Source of the DNA: a virus
Lineage: Duplodnaviria; Caudoviricetes
Length of the DNA: 64,000 bases
Virus record (IMG/VR): IMGVR_UViG_2540341244_000005
Location: 7,399-71,398 of that record
Reading direction: 5' to 3' (one strand)
Shown here: positions 3,099-64,000 of the stretch, in pieces
How positions within the stretch are numbered: position 1 is the stretch's first letter
Layout of the letters: each line of letters opens with the position of its first letter
Program-made: the position numbers and the translations under genes
The notes under the pieces: model-generated
What the model was told of the DNA's origin: nothing
The model's database searches: none
The model's input: only the letters and a program-made list of their open reading frames with translations

Positions 3099-3110
3099 GG
3101 TCTTCTCCTG

Positions 3111-3173
3111 GTGGCTGCTCATCAGGCCCGGGCCGCCACGCCCGGACGACCGCCCACATGGGGCGGTTTCGCA
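3111..3173 (-). ncRNA. Type II hammerhead ribozyme
   Basis: UGC-GAAA-CCGCCC(CAUGU)GGGCGG-UC^-GUCCGGGC(GUGGCG)GCCCGGGC-CUGAUGA-GCA: complete core and three stems; loop I GUGGC can pair with the 3' GCCAC. Confidence 0.9.
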
Positions 3174-3479
3174 TCAGGCGTTCGGATTCAACGCATCCTT
3201 CAGCGCCTTCCCCACATTGAGCTTGGCGCTCCGGCTGGCCTCGATATCAATGGTCGCACCGGTGCGGGGATTGCGGCCTTTGCGCGCCTTGCGTTCCACC
3301 AGTTCCAGCGTGCCCAGGCCGGGCAGCGTCACCTTGCCGCCCTCGGCCAGGATCGAGGCGGCCTCCGCGCCGAGTGCATCCAGCACATGGCTAATGGTGG
3401 TCTTCTCGTGTATGTGCTTGGTCTGCACGTCGCCGGCCAGCCGGTCCTTGATCCTGTCGATGAGTCCCGCTTTGCTCAT
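3174..3479 (-). CDS. HU/IHF-family DNA-binding protein
   Basis: MSKAGLI...VTLPGLGTLELVERKARKGRNPRTG...GKALKDALN. Confidence 0.92.
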   Translation of the reverse strand: MSKAGLIDRIKDRLAGDVQTKHIHEKTTISHVLDALGAEAASILAEGGKVTLPGLGTLELVERKARKGRNPRTGATIDIEASRSAKLNVGKALKDALNPNA

Positions 3480-5260: not shown

Positions 5261-5976
5261 GCCCGCCTCCAGCTCTTTTGCTTCTGGATCGCCGCCACCA
5301 TGGCCGCGTCGGCCTTGTCGGTTTCGCGGGCCTTGGCCGCCTGTTCCAGCATCTGCACCATGTTGCGCACCAGCCGCATGTCGCCGTCCGAAGTGGCCCG
5401 GACCATGGCGCAGGCTTCGGGCGTCAAGTCGAGGCCGGCGGCTTCGAAGGCGAAGGCGGCGATGTCGCCTTCATCCACGGGGCCGAAGGCCACTTCCTGG
5501 GTCACGCGGGACCAGATGCGGCGGCGCTTGGACAACAGCCCGATAAGTTCCTCTTCCCCTATGAGGAGGATTGCCGCCCCGGTGGCCTCATGGATGTCGC
5601 GCAAGTCCTCGATCCGCCCGAAGGCCAGCCGGTCGGCTTCGTCCATGTAGATGGTGGCGGCCTGGCCCTGTTTGCGCCGTTTCTCCAGGACTTCGACAAT
5701 CCGCACTTTGCAGGCGTGGGCCGAACGCGGCGCTAGCGCACCCGTGACCTCAAAGCACAGCTTCCCGAGGAAGGCGGCCTGCGTCATGTCTTCCCATGCG
5801 GAAAGGAACACCCCGCCGCGCTCGGCCTGGCTGTTGCGAGCGGCAAACGTCTTGCCCCGGCCGGCCTGGCCCCAAGCCACGACAATGCCGGGCTGGCCTC
5901 GCTCGGTATCCTCGACAGTCAACACGGCCCGCTGAAAAGCGGCTACGTTGCCCGTCTCCACAAAAACCGATTTCAT
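5257..5976 (-). CDS. MuB-like AAA+ transposition ATPase
   Basis: Walker A GQAGRGKT, Walker B IYMDEAD, LRDIHE; follows the transposase. Confidence 0.92.
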   Translation of the reverse strand: MKSVFVETGNVAAFQRAVLTVEDTERGQPGIVVAWGQAGRGKTFAARNSQAERGGVFLSAWEDMTQAAFLGKLCFEVTGALAPRSAHACKVRIVEVLEKRRKQGQAATIYMDEADRLAFGRIEDLRDIHEATGAAILLIGEEELIGLLSKRRRIWSRVTQEVAFGPVDEGDIAAFAFEAAGLDLTPEACAMVRATSDGDMRLVRNMVQMLEQAAKARETDKADAAMVAAIQKQKSWRRA

Positions 5977-8084
5977 GCGTCTCCTCCCCCGTTGGCGGCC
6001 TTGCGACGGCGCTCGTAGACCGTGCGCAAGCGCGCGTAACGTCCAGCCGCGCAGGCCGCGTATTCCTCGGTTTGCTCATAGCGGGCCATCCATGCGGCGT
6101 CGGCCTCACGCAGGGCCAAGCCGTCACGAACGGCCAAATTGAAAAGGTATTCGTAGCGGTCGAGTTCATTGACGATGGTGGCCATCTGCGCCGGCGGCAC
6201 ATAGGCCGGGGCGGCTTCGATCTTGGCCCTGGCCGCGATCTTGGCGGCTTCGATGCTCTTGACGTTCGGGGCTTTCGGTTCCGGCAGAGCCGGCGTTTCG
6301 GCCTTGTCAGCCGACACCAGACGCATGCGAGTCTGTGTTTCCGGCAGCACCACGGAATTCAGGAAATCTCTGGCGTTGGCCGTGACCTGGTTTTCCAAGG
6401 CCTTCTTGTAGGCGATCTCGCTCGTCAGAACGGCCTGATCGTCAGCGGTCCCAAGGAGGCGGGCAGCCGGATGCACTTTCGGCACGGGCGTGGCCTCGCA
6501 GATCAGATTCTTGCCGGACTGGTCGTAGACGAGCACCGACCGCCGGTCCTGCTCGTCGAAGCGCACCAGCACGGGATGGCGCAGGCTATGCAAGAAGGGA
6601 TGGCGATAGGACTGCCCAAAAAGGCCCACGCCGTTGCGGTCGATGGTGCGGACCACCTTGGAGAGCATGCACAGCCGCAGCTTAAGCAGATCGCCTTCGC
6701 CAAGGCCGGGACCGGCCCCCGCAGCAAACGCCTCGGCCGGAGCTTTGCCGGCCAGGTGGCCCCGCTGGGGGCGTTCGGCATAGGCATCGAACCAACTGGC
6801 AATGGCGGTATGGGCTTCCTCAAGGGTCAGCGGCCGGCCGCCGGATGCCTCATAGACTTTGCGGTGGAGCTTCTCCCCGCGCATGAGGCGCGGTGGCTTG
6901 GATTCTATGGACGTGCCGACATATGACGGTATCCAGCGTTCAAGCTCGCCGAACGTCTTAAAAAAGCGTTCAATGGTCTTGGACTGACCGTGGTAGGGCC
7001 AAGCGAAAAGCGGGGCTATGCCGAGTTCCTGAAATACGCCGCCAAGGCCACTTTGCTTCAGGTCCACGCCGTTGAAAAACTTGCTCCGGAAGGCCCGCCC
7101 GTTGTCCAGATAGGCCACCTTCGGAAACATTCCGAGTCGCAGGCATGCCCGGCGCAGGGCCGAGGCGATGGCTTGCGTGTTTTCCGTGGGCAGGATTTCC
7201 CAGCCAAGCGGGTAGCTGGATGCCATGTCGAACCACAGCACCAGTTCCATGCGCGCCCCCTTGCCGGTCTCCGGGTCGAGAATCTCGAAATTGAGGGCAT
7301 GGCCGTCGGCCACCAGGATGTCGCCCACGCTGATTTTCGAATAATCGCGCTCGATATACGGGCAACAGTCGTCGTTCCAGGCCTTGGCTCCCTCGCGGGC
7401 GTAGACCCATTCCCCGTAATTGAGGGTCATCCACTTGCGCAGGTAGCGGTACAGCGTGATTTCGGCGCAATCCGGCAAGCCGGCGGGCTTAAATGCCTCG
7501 CGGGCCATGCGACAGACTTCGGAAAGACAATGCTTGTTGGGATGGCGGACCAGGGCGAGCAAAATTTGGGCGTGTCGTTCGGTTACAACCGGCTCCACGC
7601 GCACGCCGCCGCGTGTGTCGGCCAGGGCCAGGGCCGAGCCGGTGCGGCGCATGGCGGTCTTCCAGCGTTCCAGGGATTGGACGGACACCTTATCGCCAAG
7701 GATTTCCTTGATCTTGGGCCACACGCCGCCCCGGTAAGCGGCGACGAACTCCTTGCCGGCCTGTCCCTTGCGGGCCGCCTTGGCCAGGGCTTCGGTGTAG
7801 AGGCGCACCAGATCGGCTTTAGCCAGGGCCTTGCGGCGTTGATCCTCGGTCAGATTGGCATCGGCGGCCACGGCGGCGGGGAGATTGGCCCCCTCGTAAG
7901 CGGTAATGGCGTCCTGGATGTCCTCGGGCAAGGAGGCGGCGAGGTAGGCCTTTTCCCGCCAAGCTTTGCCCGAGCCGGCTTGTGCCGCGCAAGCCCACCC
8001 AGCTTTGCTTGCGCGGCTATTGACCGCCCGAGGTGTCACACCCAGGGCATAGGCCAATTCACTTGCTGTGTAAGCGTCCTTCAT
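5973..8084 (-). CDS. MuA-like DDE transposase
   Basis: N-terminal HTH (YTASELA); DDE motifs VADGH / YLDNG / KTIERFF; Mu-type C-terminal region. Confidence 0.95.
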   Translation of the reverse strand: MKDAYTASELAYALGVTPRAVNSRASKAGWACAAQAGSGKAWREKAYLAASLPEDIQDAITAYEGANLPAAVAADANLTEDQRRKALAKADLVRLYTEALAKAARKGQAGKEFVAAYRGGVWPKIKEILGDKVSVQSLERWKTAMRRTGSALALADTRGGVRVEPVVTERHAQILLALVRHPNKHCLSEVCRMAREAFKPAGLPDCAEITLYRYLRKWMTLNYGEWVYAREGAKAWNDDCCPYIERDYSKISVGDILVADGHALNFEILDPETGKGARMELVLWFDMASSYPLGWEILPTENTQAIASALRRACLRLGMFPKVAYLDNGRAFRSKFFNGVDLKQSGLGGVFQELGIAPLFAWPYHGQSKTIERFFKTFGELERWIPSYVGTSIESKPPRLMRGEKLHRKVYEASGGRPLTLEEAHTAIASWFDAYAERPQRGHLAGKAPAEAFAAGAGPGLGEGDLLKLRLCMLSKVVRTIDRNGVGLFGQSYRHPFLHSLRHPVLVRFDEQDRRSVLVYDQSGKNLICEATPVPKVHPAARLLGTADDQAVLTSEIAYKKALENQVTANARDFLNSVVLPETQTRMRLVSADKAETPALPEPKAPNVKSIEAAKIAARAKIEAAPAYVPPAQMATIVNELDRYEYLFNLAVRDGLALREADAAWMARYEQTEEYAACAAGRYARLRTVYERRRKAANGGGDA

Positions 8085-8128
8085 TGTGCCGCCATTTGTC
8101 CGCTTGAAAGATTTCCGCGTGTTACTTT

Positions 8129-8190
8129 CGGCTGCTCATCAGGCCGGACGCACCACCGTCCGACGACCGCCCCGCAGGGCGGTTTCGCAA
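8129..8190 (-). ncRNA. Type II hammerhead ribozyme upstream of the transposase
   Basis: UUGC-GAAA-CCGCCC(UGCG)GGGCGG-UC^-GUCGGACG(GUGGUG)CGUCCGGC-CUGAUGA-GCAG; stem I covaries with the copy at 3111-3173. Confidence 0.9.
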
Positions 8191-9824: not shown

Positions 9825-10448
9825 ATGATTCAAGACACAGGCCAGCCCCAAGGCATTTCCCAGCAAATTTCCCAGCATAGCCCAGATGCTGAGAAACACT
9901 TCCGCGCGAAATTCAGCCGAGTGTTGACCGCGTGTGGTGCTCGGAGTGACTCAGAATTGGCCAGAATTTTGGACATTAAGCCGTCGTCAGTTGGTGCGGC
10001 AAAGCGCAGGATGCAGCTCCCCCCCGGGTGGGTAGAGCAAATAGCACAAAGTTTTGAGATAAATGCGGATTGGCTTTTCTTCGGCACCGGCCCGATGCGC
10101 CGGGGAGAAGCCACAAAAGAGGCCCCAGCGTCGGCTCCCGCGCCTGCGGAAGCGTTTTTGACCGCCCCGCAGGAAGAGTTCCGGATGTCGGATATGCTGA
10201 CCAAGACAGCCGAAGTGCTGGAGTCCGACACAATCTACCGGACAGCATTAGCCAGCAATATAAACGCATTCCATCAAGCAGTGAGAAGCGAGCGGACGCT
10301 CGCGCGCATCGAAGAGAGGATGGCTGAATGGGAGGCGAAGGCGGACGCAATGGTGAAGCGCATGGAAGAGTTAGAGAGAGAGAACAGAGAATTGAAACAG
10401 CGGCTGGAGCCAACCGGCAGGGACAAGGCGGTGGGTGCGGAGGGGTAA
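9825..10448 (+). CDS. CI-type repressor (HTH plus coiled coil, no S24 peptidase)
   Basis: SDSELARILDIKPSSV...INADWLFFGTGPM is Phage_CI_repr-like; divergent from the early operon. Confidence 0.85.
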   Translation: MIQDTGQPQGISQQISQHSPDAEKHFRAKFSRVLTACGARSDSELARILDIKPSSVGAAKRRMQLPPGWVEQIAQSFEINADWLFFGTGPMRRGEATKEAPASAPAPAEAFLTAPQEEFRMSDMLTKTAEVLESDTIYRTALASNINAFHQAVRSERTLARIEERMAEWEAKADAMVKRMEELERENRELKQRLEPTGRDKAVGAEG

Positions 10449-10753: not shown

Positions 10754-11476
10754 TCACGCGGCCTCACGTTTGGGGTACGGCTGGATCGGAAGGCGTAGGC
10801 GTTTGCGCCAGGGCTGCTTCAGAAATAGCACGTAGCGGAACTGGCGGAACTGATGCCGGGTGGCCCGGTGAAGGTTCTCCCGGAGGTGCTGGGCGCGGCC
10901 GCCTTGGTGGCGATGCGCTGTCAGCATCAGGACGTGATACCAGTCATCATCCAGGTGCCAGAAGGTGGCAAGGTGGCTGCCGCAGAACTGAAAGTTGCTG
11001 GCCTGGTAGACCACCCCCAACCCACCGCAGCGTTCGTCGGCAAAGCTCTGGACCCAGGCCACGGTCGGGCAGGCGCGGCGGATGTATTTCACCGCATAGC
11101 TTATTGCCTGGCTTTCCGTATTGCGCGGGCAGGCGTCGTCAAGCCACATCCTGTTGAGCTCCAGATATTCGCCGACCTTGGTCCCTTCCACCACCCTGCC
11201 GGCCAAGTGCGGGTTCAGGGCGTAGCCGAATTGGAGCACACCCCGAAAGTGCCCCTGATGGTAAACGCCCAGGTGCACGTAGCTGTTATTGACCACTCGC
11301 TTGGAATAATGCTTGGCCACGATGGTTTCCCGTGCCCTGGCCGCCGGGATGGCGGCCAGGTAGAGGTCGTGCTTGCCGAACCCTTGCACCCCGGTTTCGC
11401 CTATCAGGTAGCCCGGTTGGTCACCGGTCGGCGGTTCATACGGACTCGGTTTCGGCGGATGATACGGTCTGGCCAT
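10754..11476 (-). CDS. mom: Mom-family DNA adenine modification protein
   Basis: HYSKRVVNN...GVLQFG...LELNRMWL...RNTES...SFADERCG..GVVYQASNF; downstream of and overlapping com. Confidence 0.9.
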   Translation of the reverse strand: MARPYHPPKPSPYEPPTGDQPGYLIGETGVQGFGKHDLYLAAIPAARARETIVAKHYSKRVVNNSYVHLGVYHQGHFRGVLQFGYALNPHLAGRVVEGTKVGEYLELNRMWLDDACPRNTESQAISYAVKYIRRACPTVAWVQSFADERCGGLGVVYQASNFQFCGSHLATFWHLDDDWYHVLMLTAHRHQGGRAQHLRENLHRATRHQFRQFRYVLFLKQPWRKRLRLPIQPYPKREAA

Positions 11477-11627
11477 GGGTGCGCTCCCTGGGGGAGGCTC
11501 CATGGCCTTCTGTGATGGGGCTCGCGGCCCTCACGTGGTTGATGGTATGGCAGCGGGGACATTTGATTTCGATGGTCCCGGTGCCTTTGGCCAGTAAACG
11601 TCCGCATTGTCCGCAACGTATCTCCAT
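11436..11627 (-). CDS. com: Com zinc-finger translational activator
   Basis: IRCGQCGRLLA...IEIKCPRCHTIN; upstream of mom. Confidence 0.9.
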   Translation of the reverse strand: MEIRCGQCGRLLAKGTGTIEIKCPRCHTINHVRAASPITEGHGASPRERTHGQTVSSAETESV

Positions 11628-11682
11628 GATTACCTTTACAGGTTAGGCCGGAAGCGATAGCCCTCTAACGCCCGCGCGGGCT

Positions 11683-11756
11683 GGAGCGCGGCTTCGGCCG
11701 TGGCGCGATGTTGACGCATCGCGTCGGTGGGGCGGTTGCCGCCGCCCTGCCGCTCC
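11683..11756 (+). ncRNA. Putative tRNA-sized cloverleaf RNA divergent from com (copy 1)
   Basis: GGAGCG/CGCTCC closing stem, CGGC-TTCG-GCCG, CGCGATG/CATCGCG, GGGCGG-TTGCCG-CCGCCC; covaries with 62943-63020. Confidence 0.65.
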
Positions 11757-11793: not shown

Positions 11794-12564
11794 TCAAATA
11801 GCTGAGCCGGCTTCATTGGCGGGGGCCGGCGGCCAGGCCACCGCGTCCACGGCGGCCGTCACAGCGGTTGGCGTCCCGGCCGCCTCGACGGCTCGCTTAC
11901 CGGCCAGACGCGCCAGCTCCACCGCGTCGCCATACGTCCACCAAGCATCCGCCATGGCCACGATGGTGCGGGCCACTGCCTCCGGCGTGTCGGCCGTGAT
12001 GCCGACCTCGCCGTAGACGGCCGGAAAGGATGCCTCAAAGGCGGCCAGCGCCGCAGGCTCCAAAGGAACCTGCCCCGATGCAATCGCGGCCAAGTAGGCC
12101 CGGGCCTGGCCCTCCTTGCGCTGGTAGCGGGCCATTTGGGCCGATCCGGGCGTAATCACCTGATTGCATCGAAGTTCCGCCATGTAATCGATCCGGTCAC
12201 AGGCTTCGGCACGGAGCCGATCCAGGTCGACCGCCGGCACAGGCCGCCAATCCCCGAATGTCGGGCACCCGGCCGGCAGGGGCACAACCGTGACGCCGGT
12301 CAGGGTTGCGGCCATGATGCGAGACAGAATGGAGTCCTCGGCCCGAAGAATGGCGTACTCGCCATCGTAAGAGACCGGTTCGGCCGTCACGTTGCCTTCG
12401 GCGTCGATCACGGCCGGGGTCTGGATGACGCGGCCGACGTATTGCAGCGCATGGTCATGGCTGGCCGTGATGAGTTCTCCGCTCGAAGTGGCGAGGTCAA
12501 AAGGCAGAAGCGCGGCGACGAAGGTGTCAAGGGACGCGCATTTCAGGCAGATATCGTATTGCAT
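11794..12564 (-). CDS. Tail-fibre-associated protein with DUF4376-like C-terminal domain
   Basis: GEVGITADTPEAVA...AW..VE.ARL motif shared with 14810-15526 and 62435-62938. Confidence 0.65.
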   Translation of the reverse strand: MQYDICLKCASLDTFVAALLPFDLATSSGELITASHDHALQYVGRVIQTPAVIDAEGNVTAEPVSYDGEYAILRAEDSILSRIMAATLTGVTVVPLPAGCPTFGDWRPVPAVDLDRLRAEACDRIDYMAELRCNQVITPGSAQMARYQRKEGQARAYLAAIASGQVPLEPAALAAFEASFPAVYGEVGITADTPEAVARTIVAMADAWWTYGDAVELARLAGKRAVEAAGTPTAVTAAVDAVAWPPAPANEAGSAI

Positions 12565-60868: not shown

Positions 60869-62427
60869 TGGCCGCCGTTTCCGGCCTTGCGTCCCCCGGC
60901 GCGCCTTCGTCCCCGGCCCTGGTGTCGCCGTATGTCGCCATCACCTATTCGTATCTGTCCGGATTGGCGGCCCCTGACCTGTCCAGCCAGGTGACCGGCC
61001 CCACCACGGTCTGGATGTATGACGGCCAGGAGTGGCGTCCGGCATCGTTTATCCACAACCACGACCTCGCCTACGCTCCCATCGCCAGGGGCGTGACCAA
61101 CGGGGATTTCCATAACCACGGCTCCGGGGATGGCGCGCCGATCCATTATGCAACCCTGCTGGGCCTGCCGACCATTCCCGACACCCCGGCCGGCGTGGGC
61201 CTGGATGCCGTCACCAACGACGCCCAGGTCAAGCGGTCCGAGCTGGGCATGCCCGGCGGCGTGGCCAGCCTGGACGGCAACGGGTTGGTGGCACAGGAGC
61301 CGGCCAGCGCCACCTCCACGCCTGGGGCGCTCAAGATCGTCAAAACCGGGGTTTCCGGGCTGTTGGACGCCTGGATCTCGGCCGCGTCCACGGCCATCAA
61401 GGGGCTGGTGCAGCTGGCCACGGCCGCCGAAGCCAAGGCCGGAACCGTCGACGACAAGGCCGTCACCCCGGCCGGCCTGGCCGCGTCGGCCAAGGGGCTC
61501 ATCAACGCCTATACCAATATCTACGTGCGCCCCGATGGCAACGACGCCAACGACGGCACGGCCAACAACGCGGCCCACGCCAAACTGACCATCGCCGGGG
61601 CGCTTTCCAGCATCGCCGGCAAGCTCATCGCCCCGGGCGTGACCGTGACCATCCAGGTGGCGGATGGAACGTATTCTGTTCCCGCGACCATAGCTCTCGA
61701 TCATCCCGACGGGGATAAAATATCAATTCTTGGCAACACTTCAGCGGAAACAAGTGTTCCCATAACAGCCATCAACGCAGCCGCGAAAACTCTCGCCGTG
61801 GTTGGAGATTATACGGGCAGTCTCCTGGCTGGCGACATTTTCGGGCTCCTCGGCAGCAGCACCAGCGGGCTCAACGGAGCCTACGTTGCTTCGAGCGTCG
61901 CTTTCGATGGGACATATACGGTTATCACGTGCGCGACCGAAAGCTTTGCCTCGGAAGTGGTCGGCGGTGGATACGTCCTCATCAAGCCGTGCAACAGGTG
62001 CGTACTTAACTTCGCGGCGTATGGGTTTAACATTACAACAAAGATCAAAAATATTAATGGTTTTCGATTTAACGGAGTAGGCGGAACCGTTTACAAAGCC
62101 GTAATGTCTTCACAGACTGGAGCGTTTGGCACCATTGTTAACTGCATAGCCCACAATATGGGTTACGGTTATTCCGCCTCCATGATGTCACTATTGCAGA
62201 CAAACGGATGCATATCAAAGAGCTGTTATTCTGGATTCAACGCCCTTTCCATGGGTTGCATGACATGGACTGGCAATAAAAACATTAGTGATTCATGTAC
62301 ATTCGGGGCTAATCCTTACGGCATGTCCTTCATGGGGTACACGGCGAACTTCATAGCGCGCAACAATACGACAAACTTCTCTCCTGCTGTTGGAACTGCC
62401 GGCTCCGGGAACTCTTTCATTTTGTGA
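60868..62427 (+). CDS. Tail fibre protein with AT-rich variable C-terminus
   Basis: VGL..V.ND.Q, GVASLD..G, AST..KG.VQLAT..EA.AG..AVTP fibre repeats, IYV..DGNDANDG. Confidence 0.85.
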   Translation: MAAVSGLASPGAPSSPALVSPYVAITYSYLSGLAAPDLSSQVTGPTTVWMYDGQEWRPASFIHNHDLAYAPIARGVTNGDFHNHGSGDGAPIHYATLLGLPTIPDTPAGVGLDAVTNDAQVKRSELGMPGGVASLDGNGLVAQEPASATSTPGALKIVKTGVSGLLDAWISAASTAIKGLVQLATAAEAKAGTVDDKAVTPAGLAASAKGLINAYTNIYVRPDGNDANDGTANNAAHAKLTIAGALSSIAGKLIAPGVTVTIQVADGTYSVPATIALDHPDGDKISILGNTSAETSVPITAINAAAKTLAVVGDYTGSLLAGDIFGLLGSSTSGLNGAYVASSVAFDGTYTVITCATESFASEVVGGGYVLIKPCNRCVLNFAAYGFNITTKIKNINGFRFNGVGGTVYKAVMSSQTGAFGTIVNCIAHNMGYGYSASMMSLLQTNGCISKSCYSGFNALSMGCMTWTGNKNISDSCTFGANPYGMSFMGYTANFIARNNTTNFSPAVGTAGSGNSFIL

Positions 62428-62434
62428 GGCAACT

Positions 62435-62938
62435 ATGCAGCTCGTCATCCGCAACGGGGCCATCGTGGCCACCCATCCCGATGGCCAGGATATCGCCGGG
62501 CTGTACCCCGACGGCATCGCGGTACAAGTCCCCAATGGGACGCCTGCCGAGGTCGGCCAGCCGTGGACGGTGGATCTGGACATGGCCAAGACGGCCGTTT
62601 GCGCCGACATCGACGCACGAGCCGAGAAACTGCGCCAGATGGTCCTGACCCCCGGGGCCGGCCAGATGGCCGCCTATCAGGAAAAGGAACGCCAAGCGCG
62701 CCTGTTGCAGGCCGATCCGAATCCCGAAGAGGGCAACTACCCCGATATCTATAATGAGGTTGGCATCACCGCCGACACGGCCCAGGAGGTGGCGGCGGCG
62801 GTCCTGGAGGCTGCCGGACAGTGGCGCGCCTATGGTCGGATGGTGGAGCGCGCCCGGCTGACCGGCAAGAAAGCCGTTGGCCAGGCGGCCGATCTGGCCG
62901 GCATCCTGGCCGCCCGCGACGGGGTGACCTGGCCATAA
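62435..62938 (+). CDS. Tail fibre assembly/DUF4376-like protein
   Basis: EVGITADTAQEVA...W...VE.ARL motif. Confidence 0.7.
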   Translation: MQLVIRNGAIVATHPDGQDIAGLYPDGIAVQVPNGTPAEVGQPWTVDLDMAKTAVCADIDARAEKLRQMVLTPGAGQMAAYQEKERQARLLQADPNPEEGNYPDIYNEVGITADTAQEVAAAVLEAAGQWRAYGRMVERARLTGKKAVGQAADLAGILAARDGVTWP

Positions 62939-62942
62939 AAGC

Positions 62943-63020
62943 GGAGCAGGCGGGACGGGTGCAACCGTCCCACTGGCCCGGCGTGGTGACGCCGGTCCAC
63001 CGGCTTTCGCCAGCTGCTCC
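62943..63020 (-). ncRNA. Putative tRNA-sized cloverleaf RNA divergent from com (copy 2)
   Basis: GGAGCAG/CTGCTCC, GGC-GAAA-GCC, CCGGCGT/ACGCCGG, GGGACGG-TTGCAC-CCGTCCC; covaries with 11683-11756. Confidence 0.65.
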
Positions 63021-63084
63021 CTCCCCTGCGCATCAAGGGTAGGACGGGCGTAGCAGGCGGCAGCGCAACGTGTAAAGGTTGGAG

Positions 63085-63270
63085 ATGCGGGAGATTCGAT
63101 GCGGAGGGTGTAACAAGCTGTTGGCCAGGGGAGAGGTGGTCGACCTCTCCATTAAGTGCCCCCGGTGTGGGGAACTCAACCACGTGAGGGCCTTCACGAG
63201 CCCCGACCTAGAGAGCCAGAGAGCCCCGCAGAGGGAGCCCTCGCGTGGATCACAAAAAATCGGTCTTTGA
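63085..63270 (+). CDS. com: Com zinc-finger translational activator
   Basis: EIRCGGCNKLLA...IKCPRCGELN; overlaps the MTase start. Confidence 0.9.
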   Translation: MREIRCGGCNKLLARGEVVDLSIKCPRCGELNHVRAFTSPDLESQRAPQREPSRGSQKIGL

Positions 63271-64000
63271 CAACGGGATACTCTACAATGGCGATTCCTT
63301 GGCCGTCCTTCGGGATCTGCCGGACGGCATGATTGACGCCGTTCTGACCGATCCGCCGTATTCGAGCGGCGGCCTGCACGCTGGCGCGCGACGCGCCGAC
63401 CCGGCCCAAAAGTACCAGTCGACCGGGACCAAGCGGATTTACCCGCCGATGCTCGGCGACTGCAAGGACCAGCGGAGTTTCATCCTATGGGCGACCCTGT
63501 GGCTGTCCGAATGCTGGCGCTTGGCCCAGTCTGGAGCGCCTTGCCTGGTGTTCTCGGATTGGCGGCAACTTCCCGCCATGACGGATGCCATCCAGGCGGC
63601 AGGCTGGGAGTGGCGCGGCATTGTGGTCTGGCACAAGCCGTCAGCCCGGCCCATGTTGGGCAGTTTCAAGCGCGACTGCGAGTTCGTGATCCATGCCGTC
63701 AAAGCGCCGGCCAAGGTGTTTACCCGGCGCTGCTTTCCGGGCGTTTACACCCACCATGTCAACGCTGCCGCCAAGGTCCACTTGACGAGCAAGCCCGTGC
63801 CACTCCTGGTTGACCTCCTCGGCGTTGTACCCGATGGCGGCACGGTCCTGGACCCATTTGTGGGCGGGGGCACCACGCCCATGGCCTGCATTGAGACCAG
63901 CCACAAGTTTCTGGGAGTGGAGTTGTCCAAGGACTACTTTGAGTTGGCAAGCGAGCGGATCAGGACGGCGGAGATCGCCTCGGGCATGCCTCCGAAATAA
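63245..64000 (+). CDS. Orphan N6-adenine/N4-cytosine DNA methyltransferase (beta class)
   Basis: TDPPY catalytic motif precedes H...KP and DPFVGGGTT SAM-binding motif. Confidence 0.93.
   Translation: MDHKKSVFDNGILYNGDSLAVLRDLPDGMIDAVLTDPPYSSGGLHAGARRADPAQKYQSTGTKRIYPPMLGDCKDQRSFILWATLWLSECWRLAQSGAPCLVFSDWRQLPAMTDAIQAAGWEWRGIVVWHKPSARPMLGSFKRDCEFVIHAVKAPAKVFTRRCFPGVYTHHVNAAAKVHLTSKPVPLLVDLLGVVPDGGTVLDPFVGGGTTPMACIETSHKFLGVELSKDYFELASERIRTAEIASGMPPK

Follow-up and report, generated by a model that had tools for sequence, protein, structure and literature searches.

A conserved cloverleaf element antisense to com at the DNA-modification operons of Mu-like phages, possibly a divergently transcribed small RNA

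Genomic context of the element

The window analyzed here, a stretch of 64,000 nt corresponding to bases 7399-71398 of a 71,398-base IMG/VR provirus record, contains two right-end cassettes of the Mu type (Table 1). In the cassette close to the end of the window, a tail-region ORF is followed by the element that is the subject of this study (copy 2), by com, for which a second possible start (TTG) is present at 63079, and by a gene for an N6/N4 DNA methyltransferase. In the other cassette, the element (copy 1) lies on the strand opposite to com and mom and is accompanied by an ORF homologous to the tail-region ORF of copy 2. This gene order, com and a methyltransferase gene after copy 2 and com and mom after copy 1, had been correctly recognized in the initial annotation of this DNA.

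Several other features of the window were observed. The CI-type repressor gene (9825-10448, plus strand) of one Mu-like genome is located approximately 300 bp from the mom end (10754) of the next genome, which implies that the record represents either Mu-like genomes joined head to tail or a concatemer created by assembly. On the plus strand, a third structural region extends as far as the record does. Two type II hammerhead ribozymes were detected on the minus strand at 3109-3174 and 8126-8190 (77.2 and 64.6 bits; Rfam gathering score 37). Both belong to the early region of a Mu-like prophage, and the one at 8126-8190 is just upstream of the transposase gene. The segment 18001-20000 has a G+C content of 0.43, compared with 0.55-0.73 elsewhere in the window, and may be a cargo or moron insertion.

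Table 1. Features of the two cassettes and of the transposase gene, in window positions.
Feature	Position	Strand	Remarks and evidence
Mu-type transposase gene	5973-8084	-	
mom, copy 1 cassette	10754-11503	-	opposite strand to copy 1 element; PF25680, E 8.8e-76
com, copy 1 cassette	11436-11627	-	opposite strand to copy 1 element
-35-like hexamer TTTACA, copy 1	11635-11640	+	17-nt gap to the -10-like hexamer
-10-like hexamer TAGCCC, copy 1	11658-11663	+	
P0, copy 1	11670-11681	+	fold
Element core, copy 1	11683..11756	+	74 nt, P1 and P2 shorter, UUCG loop; fold; covariance model, 53.9 bits
ORF, copy 1 cassette	11794-12564		homologous to the tail-region ORF of copy 2
Tail-region ORF, copy 2 cassette	62390..62938	+	phrog_32459, unknown function; ends 4 nt from copy 2 element
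U-rich tail	62933..62942	-	5 U in 10, after closing stem; overlaps upstream ORF stop codon; fails terminator rule
Element core, copy 2	62943..63020	-	closed four-way junction; fold, covariance-model matches of 95.4 and 90.4 bits, covariation
P1, copy 2	63014-63020 paired with 62943-62949	-	
P4, copy 2	62950-62973	-	
P3, copy 2	62974-62999	-	
P2, copy 2	63000-63013	-	GAAA loop
P0, copy 2	63023..63039	-	6-bp hairpin two bases 5' of junction; fold; equivalent dyad/hairpin at the same place in related loci
Extended -10-like site, TGC + TACGCC	63047..63055	-	predicted from a weak consensus match at a conserved position
-35-like hexamer TTTACA	63071..63076	-	18 nt from the -10-like site; overlaps com GTAAAGG ribosome-site region
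com, copy 2 cassette	63085..63270	+	Zn-ribbon translational activator; PF10122, E 3.5e-20
Five GAG(N)2CC words	63186..63227	+	inside com, just before methylase start
N6/N4 DNA methyltransferase gene	63245..64000	+	overlaps com end, runs to record end; PF01555, E 1.7e-19

Fold of the element

On the minus strand, which is antisense to com, copy 2 folds with a free energy of -52.5 kcal/mol (z -5.5), a value matched by 0 of 200 shuffled sequences. The structure consists of a 7-bp closing stem (P1) and three hairpins (P2, P3 and P4), with zero unpaired bases at the junction. A comparable fold was obtained for copy 1 on the plus strand, which is antisense to its own com (-53.3 kcal/mol, z -5.1). 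The folds of the com-sense strands were weaker, with -48.6 kcal/mol (z -4.3) for copy 2 and -38.4 kcal/mol (z -2.3) for copy 1. Internal loops are essentially absent from the variant to which copy 2 belongs (type A, see below), the single one being a 1x1 mismatch in P3. The predicted transcripts of both copies, consisting of a 5' hairpin (P0), the junction and the tail, also recovered the modelled fold (z -3.3 and -3.1).

The initial annotation had presented copy 2 as a 78-nt counterpart of 11683-11756, and the two sequences are indeed homologous and both fold as a four-helix junction. Within the range flagged there (62943-63078), the core is confined to 62943-63020 and the remainder up to 63078 is spacer to com. 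The proposed exchange of GAAA for UUCG was seen in the loop of the first hairpin, and one exchange of G-C versus A-U was found in the last arm. On the other hand, the middle arm is only partly substituted: in alignment A8, three of its 10 pairs changed on both sides, three changed on one side and four are identical. The two words described as conserved and unpaired also needed revision. GUGG is conserved but sits within the helices at the junction, and UUGC lies in the last loop of both window copies but this loop varies across the family.

Distribution and variants

Using the two Com proteins of the window, we collected 80 viral and 80 genome loci; one covariance model (R1) was built from 10 close relatives and another (R2) from 29 matches. 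In a first scan of about 20 loci, the same junction was present 60-70 nt upstream of com in many com loci. Conservation upstream of other com genes, on which the initial proposal had been made to depend, was confirmed with R2, which matched antisense to com at 23/80 viral loci and 19/80 genome loci. Over the whole 71-kb record, only the two known sites were matched by this model. The genome loci that have the element belong to Desulfovibrio, Bilophila, Halodesulfovibrio, Maridesulfovibrio, Oleidesulfovibrio, Desulfovibrionaceae, Desulfarculaceae and 'Proteobacteria' MAGs; no R2 match was found at com loci of Collimonas, Comamonas, Ralstonia, Azospirillum and similar organisms. A whole-genome search of the family of G001, the Halodesulfovibrio aestuarii genome that holds locus L101, identified the element in 30 of 151 genomes (E <= 1e-4). 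The cultured strain H. aestuarii DSM 17919 harbors two copies.

Three variants could be distinguished. Type A (78-79 nt) includes copy 2, and type B (74-77 nt) includes copy 1. Type C (101-106 nt) has a long P2 arm with a conserved bulge of 4-5 nt, of the form (G/U)(U/A)UAU, and includes some Bilophila forms with a short P1. Throughout the family, sequence conservation is strongest where the four helices meet at the junction, and variation and covariation are found in the distal stems and loops; P2 is capped by structural tetraloops, either GNRA or UUCG in kind.

Covariation and strand preference

Covariation was analyzed in two alignments: A8, containing com-selected loci (37 distinct rows), and A10, containing whole-genome matches that were not chosen by com (31 rows). 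Both alignments were fitted to the model, which favors pairing, and the slid controls and the second set address this bias. In A8, 96.9% of cells were paired and 20 of 31 pairs showed compensatory change; none of 500 shuffles reached these values and slid controls gave at most 56%. In A10, 97.0% of cells were paired, again with 20/31 compensatory pairs and with slid controls at or below 55%. Shuffles of this second set reached the observed values in 0/500 cases on four of five measures, and in 44/500 cases on the remaining one (further pair types). Across the homologue alignments, pairing was between 96.9% and 97.3%, and compensatory change was present in 15-20 of the 31 pairs.

The pairs also reveal which strand is selected. 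G-U and U-G cells outnumber A-C and C-A cells by 133 to 12 in A8 and by 109 to 11 in A10, and one U-G pair in P4 is nearly invariant (34/37 rows in A8 and 31/31 in A10). Because G-U pairs would become mismatches on the com strand, the selected fold is that of the strand antisense to com. Thus, the earlier description of a covarying, RNA-like cloverleaf whose functional strand is divergent from com is well supported by the compensatory pairs and the G-U bias.

The G-U asymmetry is evidence against both a sense-strand leader or terminator and a double-stranded DNA site. In the former case, the com-sense strand would be the active one, and the element would either end or terminate the mRNA of the tail operon or form a structured leader at the 5' end of the com mRNA. 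Such a role would fit its location on that strand between the tail-region ORF and com, as well as the fact that the sense strand of copy 2 does fold. However, the A-C mismatches that replace G-U pairs there and the weak sense fold of copy 1 make it very unlikely. Moreover, short sense leaders of the two window copies are unstructured (z +1.75 and +0.46), and the sense strand 3' of the element has no U run (mean of 2.0 T in 10 nt), with terminator-like sites as rare as reported below.

Flanking sequences on the antisense strand

The P0 hairpin or an equivalent dyad occupies the same place relative to the junction in related loci. P0 could mark the predicted 5' end of an RNA, or it could serve the rightward promoter as a dyad operator. 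When P0 was tested as an activator operator common to other late promoters of the same prophage, no further copies beyond chance were found in the window. In many of the P0 dyads (examples of which are found in L017, L035, L178 and L179), TGATCA is framed by complementary flanks (NNN-TGATCA-NNN) and a GATC (Dam) site is thus enclosed; others have TGTACA. In Mu, GATC methylation upstream of the mom promoter controls mom.

The GATC sites in many P0 dyads are among the observations that would suit an element acting at the DNA level, be it by cruciform formation, by protein binding or by folding of a single DNA strand. The helices are necessarily inverted repeats in DNA as well, and the region corresponds to that of the Dam/OxyR control sites described for Mu in PMC3378877. 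However, compensatory change in four separate helices combined with a G-T preference on one strand is unlike what is seen at double-stranded sites. In addition, no single-stranded DNA stage is known for transposable phages, and the chance that the element acts as DNA is, in our opinion, slight.

Upstream of P0, both copies have an extended -10-like or -10-like site preceded by a -35-like hexamer (Table 1). In 28 of 31 loci of types A-C, a distance of 17-33 nt separates the -10 end of the best promoter-like site from the element downstream. The antisense promoter scores are weak (mean best score of 7.99, versus 7.31 +/- 0.90 for shuffles and 7.23 for the sense strand), and the -10-like hexamer is without the usual final T. 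A scan with the strict sigma-70 consensus identified no promoter on either strand of either window copy. One conserved word reads CCTGCTA on the antisense strand and TAGCAGG on the com strand, and its presence on both strands points to two back-to-back -10-like elements with a TA step in common; TAGCAGG could equally serve the rightward promoter instead. An anti-terminator arrangement, with the upstream word CCUGCUA competing for pairing with P1, was also considered and was rejected since types B and C showed no co-variation of this word with P1.

At the other end of the element, terminators were called by a rule that asks for a G+C-rich stem directly followed by a U run with at least 5 T in 8. 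By this rule, no terminator was found on either strand of copy 2, while the last arm and tail of copy 1 qualified on the antisense strand. Within 110 nt 3' of the element, terminator-like sites were present in 11/37 loci on the antisense strand versus 0/37 on the sense strand; this set consists of the 42 com-selected element loci minus L018, L028, L031, L091, L101, L102 and L152, plus the two window copies. The corresponding numbers in the whole-genome set were 6/31 and 1/31. Tails of types A and B are mildly U-rich or not U-rich at all and do not have the canonical terminator seen in type C. In the long-P2 elements of type C, clean antisense terminators occur 8-12 nt past the junction (L017, L043, L105/L024 and L129; L189, L193, L194 and L200), the one of L017 being also called by a terminator-finding tool.

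It is worth asking whether the element is merely an unusually elaborate stop signal, or a form of 3'-end protection, that keeps leftward transcription coming from the control region of the modification operon out of the tail genes. Type A elements lie only 2-5 nt from the stop codon of the upstream tail-region ORF, the tail being U-rich in some of them only. Together with the terminator-like last arm and tail of copy 1 and with a sibling element of other proteobacteria (see below), in which a U run directly follows the closing stem, this arrangement is what a stop signal would look like. On the other hand, many type A and type B tails are not U-rich, and a plain hairpin would suffice for the purpose, yet compensatory change keeps four helices. 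A separate terminator past the junction, as in type C, would be needless if termination were the point, which argues against termination alone. We regard this explanation as improbable.

Linked genes and the Com protein

The gene following com was examined in the 42 com-selected loci that have the element. It encodes a homologue of N6/N4 methylases in 11/42 loci and Mom in 2/42. Among the other 29/42 loci, eight representatives were searched against Pfam, which gave C5 methylases (PF00145) in three cases, a D12 Dam-type methylase (PF02086), another PF01555 methylase, a Methyltransf_23-type protein and an ATPase plus GNAT protein. With regard to the last category, the gene after com in L035 (L035:1824-2957) and L095 (L095:1819-2946), and also in L045, L101 and L017, codes for a protein of approximately 375 aa. 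The L035 protein has signatures of a P-loop ATPase (ABC_tran-like) and a GNAT acetyltransferase, and the L095 protein has the ABC_tran-like signature only. The protein may take the place of Mom as another kind of DNA-modification enzyme.

In the whole-genome set, com was found on the other strand, 58-134 nt from the element, in 18 of 31 matches. Another 11 matches (L174, L176, L178, L179, L181, L182, L184, L187, L188, L190 and L195) are without com; instead, an ORF of 254-265 aa starts 48-78 nt from the element, and all three of those run through Pfam were PF02086 proteins, i.e., D12-class Dam-type methylases. The com-less loci have retained P0 as well as the word TAGCAGG and the ribosome-site region with GTAAAGG. 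The two remaining matches comprise one cut by a contig end and L171 (G002:C17:225-293; G002 being the genome that holds L134, Bilophila wadsworthia ATCC 49260), which has neither com nor a methylase gene nearby and may be a prophage remnant.

In the form in which it was stated, the earlier view that the RNA tracks with com and not with the modification enzyme is not supported by these results. Several unrelated modification enzymes do follow the element, but 11 of the 31 matches that were not selected by com have no com at all. Since the element then directly precedes an ORF that is Dam-type in the three cases checked, it goes with the control region of late DNA-modification operons, with or without com. 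It also follows that some members of the family can do without the translational step that depends on com.

The earlier suggestion that Com might bind the RNA could be assessed indirectly. According to the SELEX study of a Com zinc finger in PMC6483171, the motif GAG(N)2CC is presented in hairpin loops; as this motif comes from the Com of Haemophilus sputorum, it provides an indirect test for the Com proteins considered here. The motif occurs in the predicted RNA in only 1 of 38 loci, and this published motif therefore lends no support to binding of the cloverleaf by Com. In contrast, at least two copies are present in the 3' part of com in 26/38 loci, including the five words of copy 2, although one word overlaps conserved Com codons and the enrichment is thus partly due to coding. 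On the basis of the motif reported in that study, it is most likely that the target of Com is inside its own mRNA, as in Mu, and not in the cloverleaf.

Search of known RNA families and literature

When compared with Rfam 15, which includes C4, ctRNAs, Mu-gpT-DE and self-cleaving ribozymes, neither window copy matched any family at the gathering threshold. At E <= 10 only chance-level matches were obtained, the best being ctRNA_pGA1 for copy 1 only (18.2 bits, compared with a gathering threshold of 45), and 20 related loci gave nothing at the element. ARAGORN predicted 0 tRNA or tmRNA genes in the window. The Rfam tRNA model (RF00005) did not match the element at its gathering threshold, while real tRNAs were matched in the flanking host DNA of two loci; ribozyme models likewise gave no match at the element, which accordingly was not placed among the small self-cleaving ribozymes. 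We did not find a description of such an RNA in the main texts of the freely accessible papers searched. As judged from sequence and predicted structure, the element is best assigned to the divergent or antisense small RNAs that phages encode at late operons under tight control, with an unusual body in the form of a fully paired four-way junction.

Proposed mechanism

For the host, mom and other phage genes for DNA modification are toxic, and they rank among the phage genes under the tightest control. To the observed fold, family conservation, covariation, strand bias and genomic linkage we attach an interpretation in which the element is a small RNA transcribed leftward from a weak divergent promoter resembling momP2 of Mu. 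The promoter, the ends of the RNA and its regulatory effect are all inferred from sequence, and our confidence in this model as a whole is only a little better than even.

In this model, the element would be the body of a non-coding RNA of approximately 100-120 nt, extending from about 63040 down to about 62935. Transcription would run to the left and away from com. It would start at a weak promoter with a -10 region back to back with the promoter region of the rightward com-methylase operon, the two having a TA step in common. The leftward transcript would have been kept by selection as a 5' hairpin followed by a very stable, fully paired four-way junction. Two roles can be envisaged. Occupancy of the leftward promoter may hold the cytotoxic modification operon shut, and the folded RNA may, as a stable product, serve to end or to protect the leftward transcript. 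As the folded RNA is fully complementary to transcripts reading through from the tail genes, it could also neutralize such transcripts; in cis, overlap would be limited to any read-through from the tail-region ORF, which stops 4 nt short of the element. Promoter competition by itself would not call for a conserved RNA fold, which argues against competition alone.

A contribution from loop-loop kissing or trans pairing with the com-modification mRNA was rejected. The longest complement of the P3 and P4 loops in the mRNA of their own locus was 4.9 and 5.3 nt, compared with 5.0 and 5.4 nt for loops taken from other loci.

This lack of complementarity above control would also be expected if the folded RNA worked in trans through a protein or other partner that recognizes the junction, e.g., as a decoy, a scaffold or a tRNA-like mimic, with the promoter being only the means of expression. 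The concentration of conservation at the helix bases around the junction, the GNRA or UUCG tetraloops of P2 and the retention of the bulge in long-P2 variants are also in line with such a role. However, no candidate partner has emerged, the Com motif is nearly absent from the RNA, and tRNA and Rfam models do not match it; furthermore, the strict linkage of the element to one promoter region favors a role in cis. We therefore consider action in trans unlikely. A more specific version, which is likewise unlikely, is that the RNA is a stable trans-acting molecule that travels with anti-restriction DNA-modification cassettes and whose junction may bind a host or phage factor (a late activator, a nuclease or a defence sensor). 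If this version were true, the momP2-type promoter would exist to make the RNA, and related RNAs would guard modification genes across many Mu-like phages.

Comparison with known systems

Cis-encoded antisense RNAs with several stem-loops are known from plasmids and phages, including ColE1 RNA I, CopA of R1, OOP of lambda, sar of P22 and c4 of P1. Like them, the element would give a short, highly structured RNA, encoded beside the gene that it would control and made opposite to a transcript that is to be kept down. It differs from them in its closed four-way junction with almost no single-stranded bases, in its loops, which do not target the adjacent mRNA, and in that it would overlap read-through transcripts only. 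There is also a superficial likeness to tRNA in the length of 74-79 nt, the closing stem of about 7 bp, the three hairpins and, in many members, the 7-nt loop of the last arm. Unlike tRNA, the element is without linker bases at the junction, and its arms have 5, 10 and 9 bp. Its occurrence raises the question of what job a fully paired four-way-junction RNA performs.

The region upstream of com is also structured on the antisense strand in loci that do not have the cloverleaf. In 108 such com loci, the mean free energy was -61.9 kcal/mol on the antisense strand versus -52.6 kcal/mol on the sense strand, z was at or below -3 in 47/108 versus 18/108, and strict terminators were present in 21/108 versus 8/108. 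A sibling RNA-like element was recognized there in Mu-like phages of beta-, gamma- and alpha-proteobacteria (e.g., L062, L082, L108 and L155, and about 100 further com loci), antisense to com and some 30-150 nt upstream of it. In an alignment of 22 loci hand-picked from the 108, it has an extended -10 sequence TGnTAGnCT (T, A and T conserved at 90% or more) and a dyad or hairpin, together with a closing stem that encloses two hairpins and a run of U; both sides change in 13 of the 20 predicted pairs. The sibling has no Rfam match and is not detected by R2. It shares with the cloverleaf the place and strand, the extended -10-like site, the 5' dyad or hairpin, the closing stem and the variable modification genes downstream, but the number of its inner hairpins is two rather than three, and it ends in a clear terminator with a U run. 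The cloverleaf is present in roughly a fifth of the species genomes sampled from one family and its sibling in other proteobacteria, and the alignments can serve as a seed for cataloguing the family.

The closest functional comparison is offered by Mu itself. The mom promoter region of Mu has been described as containing two divergent, overlapping promoters, momP1 and momP2 (PMC3378877 and PMC4287176, citing Balke 1992; Sun & Hattman 1998). In these accounts, RNA polymerase is found at momP2 without the C protein, and the late activator C shifts it to momP1 (PMC3378877, PMC4287176). Homology of the element to Mu (AF083977) was rejected: the 94 nt between gin and com have no significant fold (z -0.2), and the best model match, with 7.9 bits, is elsewhere in Mu. 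The correspondence is therefore one of arrangement. The element occupies the position that the mom control region has in Mu: it directly precedes com and a cytotoxic DNA-modification gene in the right-end segment of a genome of the Mu type, and a leftward promoter-like site, here predicted, is back to back with a rightward one, with an activator-type dyad alongside. Unlike in Mu, for which PMC3378877 and PMC4287176 name no functional product of momP2, the leftward region here appears to encode a conserved folded RNA. An RNA family with strong covariation and a clear strand bias is thereby placed at the position of the backward promoter of Mu, momP2, the competitor of the mom promoter, and this raises the question of whether divergent transcription at modification operons is for making regulatory RNA.
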